A stretch of 40,471 nt of DNA from a virus (Duplodnaviria; Heunggongvirae; Uroviricota; Caudoviricetes), in the IMG/VR virus record IMGVR_UViG_2547132281_000014, positions 1 through 40,471 of that record. One strand, 5' to 3'. The notes beneath the pieces were generated by a model. That model searched no databases. It was not told where the DNA came from and saw nothing but the letters and a program-made list of their open reading frames with translations. Shown piece after piece: positions 3,155-23,641 of this stretch; the stretch's first letter is position 1, and each line of letters begins with the position of its first letter. Both the position numbers and the translations under genes were made by a program.

Positions 3155-3516
3155 TATGCTCCAGCCTCCGGTGCTTTTGGCATTACTGCCCAGTGAGTGA
3201 TATTGACGTTTTCAAGGTCCCCGACCTGAAATGTCCACTGCCATTCTCCGGTTTCTTTTTGTCCCCAGGTGTACCAGAGAGAACGCCAGCCAATTAGCCA
3301 GCCTTCTCCGTTAGCATCGAATAACAAAACACTTTCATTTGCTGGTGGCAGTTCAGTTGACACTGGTATTACTTTGTTTTCCTGTGCTGCACATTTAGCT
3401 TCAAGCGCATCGAATTTACGCACCAGGTATTCAGCATCTGTTTCATTTACTTTCAGATCTCGCGGTACACATCTCCCACGAAGAAACCCTTCCATTTCGA
3501 AAACATTCATGCGCAT
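3154..3516 (-). CDS. yfdS: DUF551-type phage protein, YfdS-like (120 aa)
   Basis: C-terminal WLIGWRSLWYTWGQKETGEWQW...ITHWAVMPKAP is the Trp-rich DUF551 signature. The ORF overlaps both flanking genes. Confidence 0.7.
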   Translation of the reverse strand: MRMNVFEMEGFLRGRCVPRDLKVNETDAEYLVRKFDALEAKCAAQENKVIPVSTELPPANESVLLFDANGEGWLIGWRSLWYTWGQKETGEWQWTFQVGDLENVNITHWAVMPKAPEAGA

Positions 3517-4043
3517 TTGCGTAACTCCGATAACTCGTTAAAGCGTTCCATAAACATCCCGTAGGCATGGCCCGGTGCCAGTGGAATCACGTTGAACATC
3601 TCTGTTGCCGGGATATCTTCCAGTACAGGCCAGAAAGAGCCATCATCAAGCCCGAGATCGCGGCGTTCGGTTGCCAGCATGATGAGATCGGCATATTTCA
3701 CGGGCGTACTCATAACTGGCGGTAACCCGTATTTCTCACGGATTACGGCGTCTATTTTTTCTTCCATTTGTTTATAGTCAGGAAGAAGGCGTTTCAGTGG
3801 TGCGGGAATGTCCTGGCAATACGCTTCTGTTGCATCATGCATTAACGCTTCAAAAGCAAATTCCTGCGGCACCAGCTGGCTGCAAAGAACCGCATGTTGG
3901 GCGACGCTGTAGAAGTGCGAAAGATGACCGGCAAAGCGACAGATATTTGAAAGGGAAACCGCGATATCGTTAATATCGATGTCGTCTTTATTTATCCTGT
4001 CATAATAAAAATGCTTCCCGGAAAAAGTTTTAATAAATGACAT
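3507..4043 (-). CDS. yfdR: HD-domain phosphohydrolase (5'-deoxynucleotidase-like), YfdR-like (178 aa)
   Basis: Start moved to the ATG at 4043, which is preceded by GGAGAA. HD-superfamily pattern RFAGH...HD(ATEAY). The 178-aa length matches my recollection of K-12 YfdR. Confidence 0.78.
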   Translation of the reverse strand: MSFIKTFSGKHFYYDRINKDDIDINDIAVSLSNICRFAGHLSHFYSVAQHAVLCSQLVPQEFAFEALMHDATEAYCQDIPAPLKRLLPDYKQMEEKIDAVIREKYGLPPVMSTPVKYADLIMLATERRDLGLDDGSFWPVLEDIPATEMFNVIPLAPGHAYGMFMERFNELSELRKCA

Positions 4044-13344: not shown

Positions 13345-14340
13345 GTGACCGTGAGAGCACTACTGACCCCTGAAATTGCCCCGCGTATGGGGATCGTATT
13401 GTTCAGGCCTGGTTCAGAGCTGATGCCCCTGTTTATGCAGGGGCGTGTCCTGCTGGAGCCTGAGCCGGAAAGTTATTCATCTTTCGCCAGTGGTGCCGTT
13501 CCGGCGGCATCACAACCGCTGGCGGATGATCCTGCCGTTCGGGCCGTGTTCCGCAATGAGGCAGTGATCCGTCGTGCTGGTGGCGTGGAATGTCTTGAAA
13601 GCTGGTTACTTCGTGAAAAGGGCTGCCAGTGGCCTCATTCCGACTGGCACAGCGAGAACATGACCACAATGCGACACGCTCCGGGCGCAATCCGTCTGTG
13701 CTGGCACTGCGATAACCAGCAGCGCGATCAGTTCACGGAACGGCTGGAATCAATGGCAACGGATAACTGTGCCCGCTGGGTGTTGTCTGTTGTGCGTCGG
13801 GATCTCGGTTTTGATGACAGTCACGTTGTGACAATGCCGGAACTGTGCTGGTGGCTGGTTCGTAATGACCTGGCGGGTGCCTTGCCGGAAAGTGCAGCCC
13901 GTAAGGCACTGAGATTACCGAAGCCTGTTGTGCCGTCTGTCACCCGGGAAAGTGACCTTGTTCCTTCGGTTCCTGCCACCAGCATCATCCAGGATAAAGT
14001 GAAAAAGGTGCTGGCGCTGAAAGTGGATCCGGAGTCGCCGGAGTCTTTTATGTTACGCCCAAAACGTCGCCGCTGGGTTAACGAAAAGTACACGCGCTGG
14101 GTTAAGACACAGCCGTGTGCATGTTGTGGAAAGCCTGCTGATGATCCCCACCACCTGATAGGCCACGGTCAGAGGGGAATGGGTACAAAAGCGCATGACC
14201 TCTTTGTGTTGCCTTTGTGCAGAAAGCATCACGACGAGCTGCATGCGGATACCGTGGCATTTGAAGAGAAGTATGGCTCCCAGCTGGAGCTGATATTTCG
14301 TTTTATCGATCGCGCGCTGGCAATTGGCGTGCTGGCCTGA
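13345..14340 (+). CDS. DUF968-type (YdfU-like) nin-region protein with a C-terminal HNH-like Cys/His cluster
   Basis: C-terminus QPCACCGKPADDPHHL...LCRKHHDELH. Position directly upstream of Q. Confidence 0.75.
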   Translation: MTVRALLTPEIAPRMGIVLFRPGSELMPLFMQGRVLLEPEPESYSSFASGAVPAASQPLADDPAVRAVFRNEAVIRRAGGVECLESWLLREKGCQWPHSDWHSENMTTMRHAPGAIRLCWHCDNQQRDQFTERLESMATDNCARWVLSVVRRDLGFDDSHVVTMPELCWWLVRNDLAGALPESAARKALRLPKPVVPSVTRESDLVPSVPATSIIQDKVKKVLALKVDPESPESFMLRPKRRRWVNEKYTRWVKTQPCACCGKPADDPHHLIGHGQRGMGTKAHDLFVLPLCRKHHDELHADTVAFEEKYGSQLELIFRFIDRALAIGVLA

Positions 14341-14355
14341 TTTTTTCGGAGAAAG

Positions 14356-14721
14356 GTGATGCGTGATATTCAGATGGTTCTGGATCGTTGGGGAGCATGG
14401 GCGGCGAGTGATAGTTCAGGAGTAGATTATTCTCCTATAGCTGCTGGGTTTAAAGGGCTTCTTCCCTATACAAGCAAAACACGTCAGGCTTGTTCAGATA
14501 GTGATGCATTAATTATTGAAGGTTGTCTTGCTCGTCTAAAGCAAAAAAGGCCGGACGAACATTCGCTTCTTGTTGCCCATTACCTATACGGTATCTCTAA
14601 AAGAAAGCTCGCCAAGGCTAGTAAAAAGGATGAGAAACTAATACGCATTGAGATACAGATGGCTGAGGGATTTATCGATGGTTGCCTTAGTATGCTCGAT
14701 ATACGTTTAGAATGTGAATAG
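14356..14721 (+). CDS. Late-gene antiterminator Q family protein
   Basis: 121-aa ORF with the DRWGAWA... motif typical of one Q family. It is the last gene before the lysis region. The ATG at 14359 is the likelier start. Confidence 0.78.
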   Translation: MMRDIQMVLDRWGAWAASDSSGVDYSPIAAGFKGLLPYTSKTRQACSDSDALIIEGCLARLKQKRPDEHSLLVAHYLYGISKRKLAKASKKDEKLIRIEIQMAEGFIDGCLSMLDIRLECE

Positions 14722-14725
14722 ATAC

Positions 14726-14755
14726 AACAACGGCTCTTAGAGAGCCGTTGTTTTT
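14726..14755 (+). terminator. Rho-independent terminator directly after Q; it also abuts the 3' end of the convergent minus-strand unit
   Basis: AACAACGGCTCT-tag-AGAGCCGTTGTT followed by TTT. A 12-bp stem read directly in the sequence. Confidence 0.7.
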
Positions 14756-14933
14756 AGAAACTGTTTTTTATGACTGAACCTGTGGTGCAACTTAAAAAGT
14801 TACTGTAGCCATTGACGCCATTGTTGCTTGTTTTTTGAGCAGTGGATGGAATGCTTGCTGGCTTAGGCGCAGCTGTAGTTGTATGCCTGTTAGTATAGAC
14901 TACAAAGTTACCTGTAGATGATTTGTTATCCAT
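14754..14933 (-). CDS. Unlisted 59-aa ORF translationally coupled to the protease gene (Thr/Ser/Asn-rich)
   Basis: The ATG at 14933 overlaps the protease stop (cATGGATAA). Translation: MDNKSSTGNFVVYTNRHTTTAAPKPASIPSTAQKTSNNGVNGYSNFLSCTTGSVIKNSF. The stop abuts the 14726-14755 hairpin. The sequence is low-complexity, so coding status is uncertain. Confidence 0.3.
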   Translation of the reverse strand: MDNKSSTGNFVVYTNRHTTTAAPKPASIPSTAQKTSNNGVNGYSNFLSCTTGSVIKNSF

Positions 14934-15921
14934 GTCGAGCCCACCCCTCTGAGATAAGGTTATGATTTATGCCGAACTGACCTGGGACGCCTGGAACTTG
15001 CAAACGCTGTAACATCCCCTCAGTGCGGAATTGATATGAAAACGTGTCTGGAGCCTCTAAAATGCTTCTGACAGATACGTACGATGCCTGGTTAACTGTT
15101 CCTAAGATAGCATTTGGGTCAAAAGGTTCACCCAGATGCATCTCAGTTTTGAAATCTTCATAAATTTCTTTGATCAGACTGTAAAGGTGCTCATCTGGTT
15201 TTTCCACCGTAAGACCTAAATCGTTTACCGCTTCAATCCTATTTATAGTGTAGTCATGGCTACCAGAATCACTACAAAGGAAACTTACAATTTTCTCAAT
15301 GCTTTCACTATCAGTGAGTTGGTGAGACAGTAGTTTTCTTGCGAGCATTTGAATCTGCGCTTTAGCTCGATAGACTTTTCCAAGTACCAAGGGATGAACC
15401 TTTTCACTTAATGCAAGGAGGATCTGTGCAAGTGAGGCATCATCTTTGATATTCAAATCATGCTTAACTACTTCAAGATAGCCATTGATTTCTTCAACAC
15501 TGACTGGAAGTTGAAGTGGCTGCCCATTGATTATGGCCGAAGGGTTAAGTGGTGTATTCACACTTGGATCGATTGGCCCTAAGGTTGCCTGCTTGGTCAT
15601 AACCAAGTTGTTCGCGCCAAGGCACATTATCGTCCCAGAACTATGGCATTTTGATGGGATTATGATTTCGAGTTCTTTACAAAACTGACGAAGCAGGTTT
15701 ACAAGGCTCCATGCTGTTAAAGTGTCGCCGCCTCGCGTATAGAGCACGAGGCTAATTTTTTGAACATCACCTATCACATCAAGATGATTGACGAACAGAT
15801 CGAATACATCAGCGCTGATTTGAGCTTCTTGGTTTGGTCTATCACCTGTTACATAGCATAATACTTTTGAATTGCGTGCTTGTTCCAGTTGCGCATACAG
15901 GGCTTTACGCTGCTCAAACAT
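14926..15921 (-). CDS. SDH-family / Clp-fold (S49-like) serine protease, 331 aa, reverse-strand moron between Q and the lysis genes
   Basis: N-terminal half VLCYVTGDRP...ISLVLYTRGGDTLTAWSLVNLL...PSKCHSSGTIMCLGANNLVM fits the ClpP/SppA-like fold, with a candidate nucleophile Ser in HSSGT. SD AGGA. AT-rich relative to its flanks. Confidence 0.7.
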   Translation of the reverse strand: MFEQRKALYAQLEQARNSKVLCYVTGDRPNQEAQISADVFDLFVNHLDVIGDVQKISLVLYTRGGDTLTAWSLVNLLRQFCKELEIIIPSKCHSSGTIMCLGANNLVMTKQATLGPIDPSVNTPLNPSAIINGQPLQLPVSVEEINGYLEVVKHDLNIKDDASLAQILLALSEKVHPLVLGKVYRAKAQIQMLARKLLSHQLTDSESIEKIVSFLCSDSGSHDYTINRIEAVNDLGLTVEKPDEHLYSLIKEIYEDFKTEMHLGEPFDPNAILGTVNQASYVSVRSILEAPDTFSYQFRTEGMLQRLQVPGVPGQFGINHNLISEGWARHG

Positions 15922-16201
15922 TCAGATGTCCTTATGTTAAGAATTTTCAAACCAAGAGGTAACATTCATTCAGAACTTACCACACAAGTGGTTAGATTCT
16001 ATCGGCAAAAAAAGTCCAAAAATTAGCGCATTTACAAAACTCAAAGAGAGCAATGAGATTTTGCAAACGTACAGTGTGGATAACTTATGTGCAAAGTGGC
16101 GTTGATTTTACTCATTCGCTTCAAAAAAACCATAGTTTTCCTCACGCGGTCCGCATTTTATCGTGTAATCTGTTAAGAGTGGTTACTTCGCCACACAGCT
16201 T

Positions 16202-16232
16202 AAACCTGCCGTCGAGCGGGTTTTGTCATTTC
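16202..16232 (+). terminator. tR'-like terminator in the late-operon leader
   Basis: AAACCTGC-cgtcga-GCGGGTTT followed by a T-rich tract, about 150 bp upstream of the holin. By analogy to lambdoid pR'-tR' leaders. The pR' position itself is not resolved. Confidence 0.5.
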
Positions 16233-16375
16233 TGGGCCTTGGTATTCGTTGGGCTTGGTCTATCTAGCACTTATCCATTGGCTCGGCTTCTTTTACGTTT
16301 CCGCTTCTGGTTTGCGGTTCGTGGTACTCCCTCAATTTGCACCTCCTGTATCGGCGAGGTGAGAGATAACTACAA

Positions 16376-16702
16376 ATGCCTCATAACCCAAATACCTGGC
16401 TGGAGTTGGTCCAGAGCTGGTGGCGTGGAGACACACCGCTGGGCGCAGTGATTATGTCGATCGTTATGGCTGGCTTGCGCATTGCCTATTTTGGCGGTGG
16501 TGGTGGCTGGAAACGAAAAACGCTCGAGATTTTGCTCTGTGGTGCTCTGACGCTGACTTTTGCATCCGCTCTTGAGTATGTCGGATGGCCTAAATCTCTT
16601 TCTGTTGCCATTGGTGGCGGCGTTGGGCTGATCGGGGTCGATGCTATTCGTGGGGCTGCAATGAGAGTAATCGGTAATAAGTTTGGTGGCTCTAAGGAGT
16701 AA
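16376..16702 (+). CDS. Holin (class I, three predicted TM segments)
   Basis: 108 aa with hydrophobic segments (LGAVIMSIVMAGLRIAYF, ILLCGALTLTFASAL, SVAIGGGVGLIGV) and a charged C-terminus. Sits directly upstream of the endolysin. Confidence 0.85.
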   Translation: MPHNPNTWLELVQSWWRGDTPLGAVIMSIVMAGLRIAYFGGGGGWKRKTLEILLCGALTLTFASALEYVGWPKSLSVAIGGGVGLIGVDAIRGAAMRVIGNKFGGSKE

Positions 16703-16705
16703 TTT

Positions 16706-17182
16706 ATGCAGGCACTAAATTCCCAGCGTAAAGCTTTCCTTGATATGGTGGCATGGTCAGAAGGAACGGATAACGGGCGACAACCGACACGTAACCACGG
16801 TTATGACGTTATTGTTGGTGGTGAACTGTTTACTGATTACTCCGATCATCCTCGCAAACTTGTCACGCTAAACTCCAAACTCAAATCAACAGCCGCCGGA
16901 CGTTACCAGCTTCTTTCACGTTGGTGGGATGCTTACCGTAAACAGCTTGGTTTGAAAGACTTCTCCCCCAAAAGCCAGGACGCTGTGGCATTGCAGCAGA
17001 TTAAAGAACGTGGCGCTTTACCGATGATTGATCGTGGTGATATTCGTCAGGCTATCGACCGTTGCAGCAATATATGGGCTTCATTACCCGGTGCAGGTTA
17101 CGGTCAGTATGAACATAAAATCGGTGACCTGATTGCCCGATTTAAAGAGGCTGGTGGGGTGGTAAATGAAGTTGAGTTATAA
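16706..17182 (+). CDS. R: Endolysin, lambda R-type lytic transglycosylase
   Basis: NSQRKAFLDMVAWSEGTDNGRQPTRNHGYDVIVGGELFTDYSDHPRKLV... is near-identical to lambda R as I recall it. Confidence 0.95.
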   Translation: MQALNSQRKAFLDMVAWSEGTDNGRQPTRNHGYDVIVGGELFTDYSDHPRKLVTLNSKLKSTAAGRYQLLSRWWDAYRKQLGLKDFSPKSQDAVALQQIKERGALPMIDRGDIRQAIDRCSNIWASLPGAGYGQYEHKIGDLIARFKEAGGVVNEVEL

Positions 17183-17721: not shown

Positions 17722-18348
17722 TCAGTTGTCAAATGAATATACGTTAAAGGTATATGTCGACATAATTTCACCAAGTACCTCAATACATACACTTTTTTTA
17801 TGAAAATTACTGGGAAATGAACTTAGCTCCTCAAGACATTGCACATAAGTGCTGATATCACTTGCATCACGTTCAAGGAATTTCACTTGACCAAAAGAAG
17901 GAGTTTTAATCTTGGTTCTTTGCTGGATTATATGGATAAAGTGTGTAGTTGGTGAAACTATTACTCTTGAAATATCGGAAATGATGTCTTCTTGAACTTG
18001 CCGATAAAGTAAATCCTTTGGGTAATGGTGTTTAATCTCGATGGTTGCAACATTGCCATTATGTTCAGACGTTAATATCGACTGGTTATAAAGTGATATG
18101 TCAACAGCGCCGATACCGAGTTTTGGATGCTCACTTAAAGCAGTTAGTGTGCTGATTTGATTGAGTATAACAACTAACTCATCACGTATTTGTGTTTCAT
18201 GTTTGCGATTGTAGAAGTAGCCATTCAGTTCATTTAACTTTTTATGCATCCTATCGTGACTAATTGCTTCGATCAGTAAATCCTGAATCATACTTTTCTC
18301 TAGATAATCCGAACGGTTGTAAGTGACAGTATTGTGCTGGCATGTCAT
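17722..18348 (-). CDS. Putative PD-(D/E)xK-fold nuclease (208 aa; start may be ATG 18291)
   Basis: The motif order fits the restriction-endonuclease-like core: helix with E (ETQIRDELVV), then GAVDISLY (D), then ATIEIKHH (ExK). The gene is strongly AT-rich. Confidence 0.5.
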   Translation of the reverse strand: MTCQHNTVTYNRSDYLEKSMIQDLLIEAISHDRMHKKLNELNGYFYNRKHETQIRDELVVILNQISTLTALSEHPKLGIGAVDISLYNQSILTSEHNGNVATIEIKHHYPKDLLYRQVQEDIISDISRVIVSPTTHFIHIIQQRTKIKTPSFGQVKFLERDASDISTYVQCLEELSSFPSNFHKKSVCIEVLGEIMSTYTFNVYSFDN

Positions 18349-18391
18349 TAATATGTAAAGGTATTGTGAATGCCAGAAAGATAACGAAGTA

Positions 18392-18727
18392 TCATCGATA
18401 GAAAAACTTTACAGCCCACTCGTAAACAGCTTTGTAAATCGGTTCATGGTAAATACTATCGATACTATTCAGATGTGCGATCATCGCCTCCACAGTTGTA
18501 GTGGTTGTTTCTAATATTTCGATTATTGCAGGGCGGTCATCATCTTCATCGAAGTATTCGAACAGCAGTACAGGTTTACCATGCAATTCAGCATCTGAGA
18601 CTCTAAGGTTACAACTACCGCTCAACTCAAAGTGAATTTTGTAATTACCTTCTACAGAATGGCCTACGGGGAAAAAGTATAGGGTGTCATCTTTGTTCAA
18701 AAGCCATTCCCATTCATAACTATTCAT
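18392..18727 (-). CDS. Hypothetical 111-aa acidic protein, first gene of the AT-rich two-gene operon
   Basis: The ATG at 18727 is preceded by AGGAG with 7-nt spacing. The track start at 18745 has no SD. Contains an acidic stretch FEYFDEDDDRP. No family recognised. Confidence 0.55.
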   Translation of the reverse strand: MNSYEWEWLLNKDDTLYFFPVGHSVEGNYKIHFELSGSCNLRVSDAELHGKPVLLFEYFDEDDDRPAIIEILETTTTTVEAMIAHLNSIDSIYHEPIYKAVYEWAVKFFYR

Positions 18728-18877
18728 TTGTGAACTCCTGTTCATTGAGTTTCAACAACTATCAACTACATCCAGCGAAGCATAAAAGATCGTTTATGGC
18801 AAAACCGGAATGGAGTGCGATTCGATTCTGAGAAGGGTGCCACGTATCGTACGCGAACCATCCAAGAGGATTATGCA

Positions 18878-21772: not shown

Positions 21773-23013
21773 TGTTCTTTTCGGGATTATTTCAACGAAA
21801 AAGTGACGCACCGGTGACCACGCCAGCAGAGCTGGCGGATGCTATCGGGCTGTCATATGACACCTATACCGGAAAGCAGATCAGCAGCCAGCGGGCCATG
21901 CGACTGACGGCGGTTTTTTCCTGCGTCAGGGTGCTGGCGGAGTCGGTCGGGATGTTGCCCTGCAACCTGTATCACCTGAACGGCAGCCTGAAACAGAGAG
22001 CCACCGGCGAACGTCTGCATAAGCTGATCTCCACGCATCCCAATGGCTATATGACGCCGCAGGAGTTCTGGGAGCTGGTGGTCACCTGTCTGTGCCTGCG
22101 GGGAAACTTTTACGCCTACAAAGTGAAAGCATTTGGCGAAGTGGCTGAACTGCTGCCCGTCGACCCAGGTTGTGTGGTACCGAAGCTTAACAGTAGCTGG
22201 GAACCGGTTTACCAGGTCACATTCCCGGACGGCTCCACGGATGTACTGAGCCAGGAAGATATCTGGCATGTGCGCACGCTGACGCTGGACGGTCTGGTGG
22301 GACTGAATCCCATCGCCTATGCCCGCGAGGCAATATCGCTGGCAGCTGCGACCGAAGAGCACGGGGCCAGACTGTTCAGCAATGGTGCGGTGACGTCCGG
22401 TGTGTTGCGTACAGAGCAGACGCTGTCGGATCAGGCTTATGAGCGTCTGAAGAAAGATTTTGAGGAGCGTCACACCGGGCTTGGTAATGCTCACCGCCCG
22501 ATGATCCTTGAGATGGGGCTGGACTGGAAGTCGATGGCGCTGAACGCCGAGGACAGCCAGTTCCTGGAAACCCGCAAGTTTCAGCTTGAAGAAATCTGTC
22601 GTCTGTTCCGTGTTCCATTGCACATGGTGCAGAACACCGATCGCGCCACCTTCAACAATATCGAAGAACTGGGGCTGGGATTTATCAACTATTCACTGGT
22701 GCCGTATCTGACCCGCATTGAGCAGCGGATCAACACCGGACTGGTACGAAAAAGTAAGCAGGGCGTTTATTACGCCAAATTTAACGCCGGGGCGTTACTG
22801 CGCGGGGATATGAAGTCCCGTTTTGAAGCCTACGCCACCGGGATTAACTGGGGAATTTACTCTCCCAATGACTGCCGCGACCTGGAAGATATGAATCCGC
22901 GTCCCGGTGGGGATGTCTATCTCACACCGATGAACATGACCACGAAACCCTCCGATGGCAGTAAAGCCGGTAAGCAGAAGGATAACGCCAATGCAGACGA
23001 AACAACGTCTTGA
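21772..23013 (+). CDS. Portal protein (HK97 family)
   Basis: 413 aa. The GTG start follows GGAGGT. Position and size fit the HK97 order portal-protease-capsid. Confidence 0.9.
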   Translation: MFFSGLFQRKSDAPVTTPAELADAIGLSYDTYTGKQISSQRAMRLTAVFSCVRVLAESVGMLPCNLYHLNGSLKQRATGERLHKLISTHPNGYMTPQEFWELVVTCLCLRGNFYAYKVKAFGEVAELLPVDPGCVVPKLNSSWEPVYQVTFPDGSTDVLSQEDIWHVRTLTLDGLVGLNPIAYAREAISLAAATEEHGARLFSNGAVTSGVLRTEQTLSDQAYERLKKDFEERHTGLGNAHRPMILEMGLDWKSMALNAEDSQFLETRKFQLEEICRLFRVPLHMVQNTDRATFNNIEELGLGFINYSLVPYLTRIEQRINTGLVRKSKQGVYYAKFNAGALLRGDMKSRFEAYATGINWGIYSPNDCRDLEDMNPRPGGDVYLTPMNMTTKPSDGSKAGKQKDNANADETTS

Positions 23014-23641
23014 TGTACCGCTGAGTCTGAAATCTGTCAGTGACTCCGGTGAGTTTGAAGGGTATGGCTCCGTCTTTGGTGTAAAGGACAGCCACGATGA
23101 TGTGGTGATGTCCGGGGCATTTGCTGCTTCCCTGCGGGCGTGGAGTGACAGAAAAGCGTTACCTGCGCTGCTCTGGCAGCACCGCATGGATGAACCCATC
23201 GGTGTTTACACCGAAATGAAGGAAGACGATGTCGGGCTTTACGTCAGGGGACGGTTGCTTATTGATGATGATCCCCTCGCAAAACGCGCACATGCACACA
23301 TGAAGGCCGGTTCGTTAACCGGCCTTTCTATTGGGTACGTCCTGAAAGACTGGGAATACGACCGGAGCAAAGAAGCCTTTCTGTTGAAAGAAATCGACCT
23401 CTGGGAAGTCAGTCTGGTGACGTTTCCGTCTAACGACGAGGCGCGGATCAGCGACGTCAAGAACGCGCTGGCCCGCGGGGAAATCCCCGAACAGAAAAAA
23501 ATCGAAAGAGTCCTGCGTGATGTCGGACTCTCCCGTACCCAGGCCAAAGCATTCATGGCCGGGGGCTATGGCGCACTGTCCCTGCGCGACGCTGAGGATG
23601 TGAGCTCTGCACTGAATGCACTGAAAAATCTGAACTTCTAA
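22991..23641 (+). CDS. Prohead serine protease (HK97/S78 family)
   Basis: Start at the ATG at 22991. EFEGYGSVFGVKDSHDDVVMSGAF and LSIGY motifs are typical of HK97 gp4-like proteases. Confidence 0.9.
   Translation: MQTKQRLDVPLSLKSVSDSGEFEGYGSVFGVKDSHDDVVMSGAFAASLRAWSDRKALPALLWQHRMDEPIGVYTEMKEDDVGLYVRGRLLIDDDPLAKRAHAHMKAGSLTGLSIGYVLKDWEYDRSKEAFLLKEIDLWEVSLVTFPSNDEARISDVKNALARGEIPEQKKIERVLRDVGLSRTQAKAFMAGGYGALSLRDAEDVSSALNALKNLNF

Follow-up and report, generated by a model that had tools for sequence, protein, structure and literature searches.

The 40,471-nucleotide stretch of DNA analysed here (the window; record IMGVR_UViG_2547132281_000014 of IMG/VR, from a virus of the Caudoviricetes) carries on its minus strand, between the antiterminator gene Q and the lysis genes, two overlapping genes that encode a 331-residue protein, which we call P, and a 59-residue protein, which we call S. 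Comparison with homologous loci shows P and S to be, on the evidence of gene order and substitution patterns, an obligate, co-translated pair in which both genes are real and under selection. It also shows the S domain to be portable, judging from profile matches, onto antitoxin-like proteins encoded beside this protease. The explanation that we favour, and hold tentatively as falling a little short of probable, is that P and S form a self-contained, toxin-antitoxin (TA)-like two-gene cargo cassette of the prophage that would be expressed in the lysogen, with S acting as the dedicated tag, pseudo-substrate or inhibitor of P. The two genes and their junction are laid out as follows.

Positions 14926-15921, minus strand: P, an open reading frame (ORF) of 331 residues with an ATG start.
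Positions 14754-14933, minus strand: S, an ORF of 59 residues with an ATG start; its stop codon occupies 14754-14756.
Positions 14926-14933, minus strand: the 8-nucleotide overlap of P and S, ATGGATAA, with the S start codon lying within the last codons of P (cATGGATAA).

The pairing of the two genes was assessed by position. At loci with at least 260 nucleotides of sequence downstream of P, we looked for a same-strand ORF of at least 45 residues starting between -140 and +45 nucleotides from the P stop codon. Such a partner ORF was present at all 147 distinct genome and viral loci, compared with 8 of 147 at a control position placed off-frame 600 nucleotides upstream. It was also present at 74 of 74 independent metagenome loci, which brings the total to 221 of 221 loci from many phyla, and an intact P gene lacking an adjacent partner ORF was found at none of the 221. 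The start of S overlaps the 3′ end of P in 89 of the 114 profile-validated loci, most commonly by 4, 8, 11, or 14 nucleotides, and lies no more than 45 nucleotides past the P stop codon in the remaining 25. A purine-rich, Shine-Dalgarno-like stretch, GAGGGGTGG, is found within the invariant EGW codons of P, 7-19 nucleotides 5′ of the S start; as distant relatives of P also keep the GW motif, there is protein-level constraint on it as well. The overlap of P and S is thus predicted to be a translational-coupling junction. P is 50-60% identical across phyla, whereas S evolves fast, and this contrast matches the usual asymmetry between a toxin and its antitoxin.

The junction takes other forms in some relatives. 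In a subgroup from gut Firmicutes and Bacteroidales (L010, L018, and L162), S overlaps the 3′ end of P by 85-134 nucleotides in another frame, and P has a matching C-terminal extension; the partner ORF of L162 lies at 3477-3686, and the L162 cassette has a DpnII restriction-modification system on one side and an ArdC-like gene on the other. The C-terminal tail of one such relative (P0120) was considered as a natural fusion of P and S and rejected, as in the DNA of L162 S is a separate ORF in another frame that overlaps P by about 85 nucleotides. Relatives of P of 370-420 residues were likewise rejected as fusions, their extra length being made up of Q/A-rich insertions. Two loci hold remnants, L153 (5001-5637) and L155 (4433-5653), in which only the C-terminal 130-140 residues of P are left and S is intact. 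The L155 remnant adjoins an ORF of 166 residues that, by the appearance of its sequence, is HNH endonuclease-like.

The preliminary description of the window had picked S out as an unlisted Thr/Ser/Asn-rich frame with its ATG embedded in the protease stop, and had named conservation at codon level across homologous loci as the check to be made. S passes this check as a real gene. Its content of Ser, Thr, and Asn is 44%. Among close relatives, which differ by 12-30 synonymous changes, the ratio of nonsynonymous to synonymous substitution rates (dN/dS) is 0.04-0.10 for S and 0.02-0.04 for P, and these relatives keep both the length of 59 residues and the -8 overlap. Database copies of S at 76-93% identity are 59 residues long in every case. 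When the window was compared with L088-L093, the synonymous rate (dS) was higher in S (0.40-0.61) than in the adjacent P (0.23-0.32) of the same pairs, an excess that could come from recombination or from small-sample noise.

Profiles built from the partner ORFs of other loci recover S. A profile of 94 partners of proteases less than 60% identical ranked S first among the 288 window ORFs of at least 40 residues, with an E value of 3.4e-4 against 0.05 for the next best, and a profile made from the partners of the 60-70% protease group matched the window S at E 1.4e-5. In a two-fold cross-validation, S profiles recovered the adjacent ORF in 35 of 47 and 30 of 47 held-out loci with no real false positive in about 5,800 ORFs; the four matches scored as lying elsewhere are directly 3′ of the protease stop, beyond the ±120-nucleotide criterion. 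A profile trained solely on the earlier loci matched S in 62 of the 74 metagenome loci. The family consensus can be written approximately as M..n.s..g..i.Y.(D/N)..TSSA....f..S.A.PDSLAsimKN..iii. In enterobacterial S proteins, the first half of this domain is retained (..NFVVYTNR.TTAAP..) and the C-terminal half has diverged, and the window S stops directly after the domain of about 50 residues. S has no match in Pfam, PHROG, or PADLOC and is left unannotated by PGAP. By these profiles, S is a diverged member of one small-protein family encoded directly behind this protease.

Two other roles for S were considered and set aside. The consensus is acidic to neutral and Ser/Thr-rich, which would speak against binding to DNA. 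A peptide made on ribosomes and modified after translation (RiPP), or another secreted peptide, was rejected as there is no conserved third gene for a modification enzyme or an exporter, and no obvious signal peptide was seen by eye in P or S. Neighbor clustering across the family returned no conserved third gene of any kind.

P had been described at first as an SDH-family, Clp-fold serine protease with its candidate nucleophile in the motif HSSGT, and profile and structure comparisons bear this out. P matches the Pfam family PF01972 (SDH_protease) with 54.2 bits, above the gathering cutoff of 31.3 (E 1.4e-14), and the match is confined to residues 53-124, which correspond to profile positions 91-162 of 286. 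Against the NCBIfam equivalog NF047768, P scores 69.8 bits, below the cutoff of 250. The PHROG family phrog_11747, whose function is not recorded, matches residues 1-286 (E 4.5e-93), and the identical protein in RefSeq is named "SDH family Clp fold serine proteinase" by PGAP. An AlphaFold (AF2) model based on an alignment of 63 homologues reached a mean predicted local distance difference test (pLDDT) of 88.6 and a predicted template modeling score (pTM) of 0.85. In this model, a Clp-type alpha/beta domain makes up the N-terminal part (about residues 1-140), the middle is helical (142-273), and a beta meander of three strands forms the C-terminus (278-330). In a Foldseek search of the PDB, its nearest structures were 1510-N/NfeD (6m4b and 3viv), ClpP, and SppA, with matches that are weak (E about 1e-5, template modeling score 0.35-0.6, identity 14-16%). 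No solved structure or known homologue matching the C-terminal half, including the beta meander, was found in these searches. A search of PDB sequences with P returned apolipoprotein B as its sole match, by chance.

In the model, the serine of the HSSGT motif, S94, is placed at a strand-helix elbow, between the strand 81-88 and the helix 95-101, and it is invariant among the 63 homologues. K110, D118, H176, H222, and D223 are invariant as well and are candidates for its active-site partners. P is, by prediction, a cytoplasmic Clp-fold serine protease of the SDH type, with the Pfam threshold and the fold supporting the assignment and the score falling below the threshold of the NCBI equivalog. 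With a C-terminal half of its own and an obligatory partner, the P group makes up a distinct SDH subfamily.

Two more specific identities for P were rejected. A NfeD/STOPP stomatin-specific protease is contradicted by the score of P against PF25145 (NfeD1b_N), 11.8 bits versus a cutoff of 40, and by a partner that has 59 residues and is no stomatin. As for a head-maturation protease, the preliminary description had held that P is not needed for morphogenesis, the window having a prohead protease of its own, and this also holds. The matches of P to head-protease profiles are weak (NF045542, 28.3 bits versus 120; head-protease PHROGs, E 0.003-0.009), the P gene lies between Q and the holin gene and runs on the opposite strand, and the real S78 enzyme is encoded elsewhere, at 22955-23641. 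The S78 enzyme and P have no similarity to each other and are unrelated.

Homologues of P are numerous. At E < 1e-3, 4,106 database proteins were found, and the family comprises 397 clusters at 50% identity (E <= 1e-30). Relatives 50-60% identical to P occur in Proteobacteria, Bacteroidota, Firmicutes, Spirochaetes, Chloroflexi, Patescibacteria, and one methanogen bin. The family is large and, to judge from this distribution, spread by horizontal transfer. The exact P-S unit is present in 46 of 5,426 complete E. coli genomes, strain LP50-1 among them. The genes that neighbor P and S are heterogeneous and include scattered parts of restriction-modification systems, integrases, RadC, prophage genes, and housekeeping genes; a site adjoining Q recurs in seven enterobacterial loci and in L158-L161.

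At 22 of the 221 loci (about 10%), the protein encoded downstream of P is longer and is followed by a further gene, mostly overlapping; the other loci (about 90%) have P and a short S only. A profile trained on stand-alone S proteins only was run on these longer proteins. The lines below give, for each locus, the E value of the match between the S profile and the N-terminus of the longer partner, and the assignment of the next gene.

L081: E 1.8e-13; next gene PemK/MazF.
L057: E 1.2e-11; next gene PIN.
L120: E 1.4e-11; next gene PemK/MazF.
L030: E 1.8e-10.
L124: E 3.2e-5; next gene PemK/MazF.
L079: E 4e-4; next gene YafQ.
L206: E 9e-4; next gene YafQ.
L071: E 1.5e-3.
L234: E 5e-3; next gene Fic/Doc.
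L072: E 6e-3; next gene Fic/Doc.
L048: longer partner; next gene YafQ.

The S domain is N-terminal in the fused proteins (aligned residues 2-57 and similar), where it would occupy the place of the usual N-terminal domain of an antitoxin. The C-terminal parts are called antitoxins here because they are encoded 5′ of a toxin gene and show short motif resemblances, one example being ..DFDDALPDEFW in L057. Other longer partners are of a different kind. The downstream protein of L063 has a Panacea antitoxin domain (73.6 bits), and those of L056, L065, and L228 are Panacea proteins by sequence. The S profile gives no significant match for these Panacea-type partners or for those of L031 and L041. 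They were not counted as carriers of the S domain, and the case for a shared tag is built on the fusions of the PIN, MazF, YafQ, Fic, and L030 types. Third genes of other types encode a 183-residue protein of no recorded function or a DUF7689 protein. In three metagenome loci (L182, L189, and L196), the gene after P encodes about 190-200 residues that give no significant S match, and the one after that encodes a DUF7689 protein (E 1.8e-41).

The surroundings of P and S in the window comprise the following features.

Positions 14356-14721, plus strand: the Q antiterminator gene (PF06530, E 6e-53).
Positions 14726-14752, no strand assigned: a hairpin with a 12-bp GC-rich stem, between the convergent S and Q genes.
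Positions 15922-16140, minus strand: the upstream leader of P, with an AAGGA ribosome-binding site 8 nucleotides 5′ of the ATG.
Positions 16376-16702, plus strand: a lambda-type holin gene (PF05106).
Positions 22955-23641: the S78 prohead protease gene, which adjoins the capsid gene.

The unit formed by P and S was first described as an AT-rich insertion, on the opposite strand, at a moron site between Q and the late leader, ending at a hairpin at 14726-14755, and its composition and boundaries agree with this. Its GC content is 0.38-0.44, compared with 0.51-0.59 in both flanks, and its strand is opposite to that of all neighboring phage genes. Q flanks it on one side; the late leader and the holin, endolysin, and spanin genes lie on the other. 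The hairpin folds at -18.7 kcal/mol (z = -6.3), a value equalled by none of 200 shuffled sequences; a single nucleotide separates its stem from the S stop codon, and the stop of Q lies at 14721 on its other side. A terminator scan calls the hairpin on the minus strand, and five consecutive T come after the stem on the plus strand. It is likely to be a bidirectional intrinsic terminator, as predicted from these features. With this T run, rightward transcription leaving Q could also be terminated upstream of the late promoter region. On the other side of the unit, about 60 nucleotides at about 16164-16224 are 91-96% identical to unannotated DNA of Stx2 phages, phiP27, the cdtI phage, and others, and a terminator-like hairpin on the plus strand (16202-16223) overlaps this stretch, which is probably a conserved late-leader and tR′ element. 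An Rfam scan of 14300-16800 matched no family.

A second AT-rich block on the reverse strand (17722-18745, minus strand, GC 0.35-0.39) is found directly past the spanin genes. It contains an ORF of 208 residues (phrog_12494, function not recorded, E 1e-126) and one of 117 residues; neither has an above-threshold match in Pfam or PADLOC, and both are named hypothetical in RefSeq. The block looks, from its composition and orientation, like another cargo pair of the same prophage. The RefSeq twin of the window prophage has e14-type gene names (ymfT, ymfL, and ymfR). Two circular E. coli records of about 43.7 kb that are listed as plasmids, NZ_CP081704.1 and NZ_CP081794.1, carry the P-S unit together with Q and the holin gene, and the chromosome of strain AH02 (NZ_CP081701.1) carries the unit too. 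It would appear that the window prophage has also been assembled in the form of an extrachromosomal circle.

A protease paired with a substrate or pro-peptide had been offered as one possibility in the preliminary description; comparative genomics strongly supports the pairing, and the fusions of the S domain to antitoxin-like proteins sharpen the idea. If P and S form a TA-like cassette, P would be an intracellular Clp-fold serine protease, and S, made together with it, would consist solely of the domain that P recognizes. S would bind P physically and either occupy it or be consumed by it, and thus would act as a pseudo-substrate or inhibitor in the manner of an antitoxin. Once the resupply of S ended, or infection or loss of the element triggered P, the protease would attack other proteins, and this would arrest the cell or block the incoming phage. 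As the window S ends right past its domain and has no room for another function, P is the only possible enzymatic effector of the pair. P may be toxic, and the cassette may serve in defense or addiction. The strand opposite to the late genes and the cargo site between Q and the lysis genes suggest expression in the lysogen and a role in defense, exclusion, or retention. In the three-gene loci, the S domain would link the fate of the antitoxin to the protease, and with it that of the toxin, whether PIN, MazF, YafQ, or Fic.

Two-gene and three-gene loci can also be read jointly, which is a doubtful proposal. S would be the private degron or decoy of its cognate Clp-fold protease, and the two would make up a portable proteolytic switch of a so far undescribed kind. 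The two-gene form would be a TA system with a protease as the toxin and its preferred substrate as the antitoxin, and the three-gene form would be a classical TA system that brings its own antitoxin protease, independent of host Lon or ClpXP and transferable between phyla. In lysogens, such a system could act as a device for abortive infection or exclusion.

Several observations weigh against the reading of P and S as a TA-like cassette for defense or addiction. Searches at the DNA and protein level found no homologue of P in 50,697 deposited phage genomes. On plasmids, homologues were found in 11 of 72,556 records, two of which are the circular copy of the window phage, and such rarity on plasmids is unusual for an addiction module. 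Defense genes are only modestly enriched among the immediate neighbors, with no strong defense-island signal, and no PADLOC model matches P or S. Among the longer partners, the S profile is not significant for the Panacea-type proteins or for those of L031 and L041 (E 0.01-3), and the region C-terminal to the S domain in the fusions matches no Pfam family. A promoter of its own, which the preliminary description had assigned to the unit, was not confirmed: consensus scans of the 219 nucleotides 5′ of P found no sigma-70-like promoter at 9 of 12 matches or at a relaxed 8 of 12. Transcription from the upstream leader of P is proposed from gene orientation.

The alternative that survives best is that P is a dedicated regulatory protease with no toxicity and that the S domain serves it as a degron or docking tag and nothing more. 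P would then set the level of stand-alone S, a small regulator or decoy, and a lethal output would come only from the three-gene forms. An S domain on the partners of four toxin families is what a dedicated antitoxin protease would be expected to show, and Clp-fold enzymes with one operon partner do exist, such as the stomatin-specific 1510-N, the closest structural match of P. At about 90% of loci, however, P is accompanied only by a short S that leaves no space for an effector, as in the window, where S ends after its domain, and a functionless sole substrate of 59 residues would be hard to maintain under strong selection across hundreds of clusters. We regard this alternative as unlikely, although it deserves serious consideration.

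Clearly improbable, in our judgement, is that S is a trans-acting pro-peptide, an assembly factor, or an obligate cofactor for the folding, oligomerization, or activity of P. Absolute pairing and translational coupling are expected of a stoichiometric subunit, and the C-terminal beta meander of P could take up added strands from S. Yet S evolves far faster than P, which is unusual for a structural subunit, there is no obvious rationale for fusing a folding cofactor to antitoxins beside toxins, and the remnant loci keep S after loss of the catalytic half of P. The pair might instead serve the phage's own cycle and not be directed at the host or at competing phages; its target could be, for example, a repressor, a lysis regulator, or a virion protein that needs processing. 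Its place beside Q and the lysis cassette of a prophage, at a site that recurs in seven enterobacterial loci and in L158-L161, could be taken to imply this. We consider this very improbable, given the opposite strand and the different composition of the unit, the S78 prohead protease that the phage already has, and homologues that lie among restriction-modification and housekeeping genes and are missing from the deposited phage genomes. Finally, that the 59-residue ORF is open by chance or belongs to the untranslated 3′ part of the protease mRNA, as its low-complexity composition, the missing PGAP annotation, and the lack of Pfam, PHROG, and PADLOC matches might suggest, is scarcely credible because it is contradicted by the dN/dS of 0.04-0.10, by a position kept at 221 of 221 loci versus 8 of 147 in the control, and by the specific detection of S with family profiles.

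With these alternatives weighed, a TA-like role for the pair bears on a broader question. How antitoxins are removed to free their toxins is a long-standing open point, for which host Lon or ClpXP is usually credited. Operons with a protease gene directly 5′ of a tagged antitoxin-like protein bear on this question, which can be tested directly, since the protease and the tag are defined and the four toxins are familiar. The protease and tag are also found as a pair alone in hundreds of sequence clusters, from bacterial phyla and at least one archaeal genome bin. A likely role can thus be proposed for a large, named protein family without a recorded function, and an unannotated small gene is added to the annotation of an E. 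coli prophage. Within that prophage, P and S are cargo at the Q-to-lysis site, the one that Shiga toxin genes occupy in related phages.

Among known systems, classical type II TA systems with antitoxins labile to Lon or ClpXP, Panacea (PanA) antitoxins included, resemble the P-S pair in being small coupled operons on mobile DNA whose genes are never found singly, with a conserved larger gene and a fast-evolving small partner. At some P-S loci, genuine PIN, MazF, YafQ, or Fic toxins of this type, or Panacea antitoxins, are attached. Unlike in type II systems, the operon here encodes a protease, and its part would be that of the toxin, of the enzyme that degrades the antitoxin, or of both. Moreover, neither P nor S matches a known toxin, antitoxin, or defense family, such matches being confined to the additional genes of the three-gene relatives. 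An SDH or Clp-type partner is not mentioned in the main texts and text-form supplementary tables of the Panacea and NetFlax surveys, and the Panacea paper refers to unnamed "proteases" as occasional third genes and contains nothing more on proteases. In the literature searched, including the Panacea, NetFlax, E. coli pangenome-screen, HicA, and RelE/ParE papers, the pairing of P with S is undescribed, a negative drawn from incomplete coverage with few subscription journals and so no proof of absence. The protease family has already been named; its partner gene, and the use of that partner as a tag on antitoxin-like proteins, appear to be undescribed.

P shares with the SDH/PF01972 proteinases the Clp fold and an invariant elbow Ser in HS*GT, followed by invariant Asp and His. 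The Lit protein of prophage e14 is a zinc metalloprotease encoded by a single gene and activated by a phage peptide, and it leads to abortive infection. As a prophage protease in a lysogen that could halt the infected cell, P resembles Lit; the two are unrelated in sequence and fold. The NfeD/STOPP protease 1510-N provides the closest solved structure and is, like P, a Clp-fold protease dedicated to one partner. That partner, stomatin, is encoded in the same operon. In contrast to P, 1510-N is membrane-bound and acts on a stomatin/PHB-domain partner, whereas the partner of P is a low-complexity peptide of 59 residues, and the structural match is weak.

In the toxin-antitoxin-chaperone (TAC) systems with a ChAD tag, an accessory protein reads a short portable extension on antitoxins of different families (PMC5105189, PMC6377645). 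The portable S tag on the partners of PIN, MazF, YafQ, and Fic toxins, beside the accessory gene, is similar. TAC systems use a SecB-like chaperone and a C-terminal tag, whereas P and S combine a protease with an N-terminal tag that replaces the N-terminal domain of the antitoxin, and, unlike TAC systems, the P-S pair occurs in its dominant form, at about 90% of loci, with no toxin encoded separately at all. We infer that the S domain is what P recognizes and that cleavage or inhibition takes place between the two. The P-S pair belongs to neither group; it would work most like the TAC systems and the NfeD/stomatin pair.

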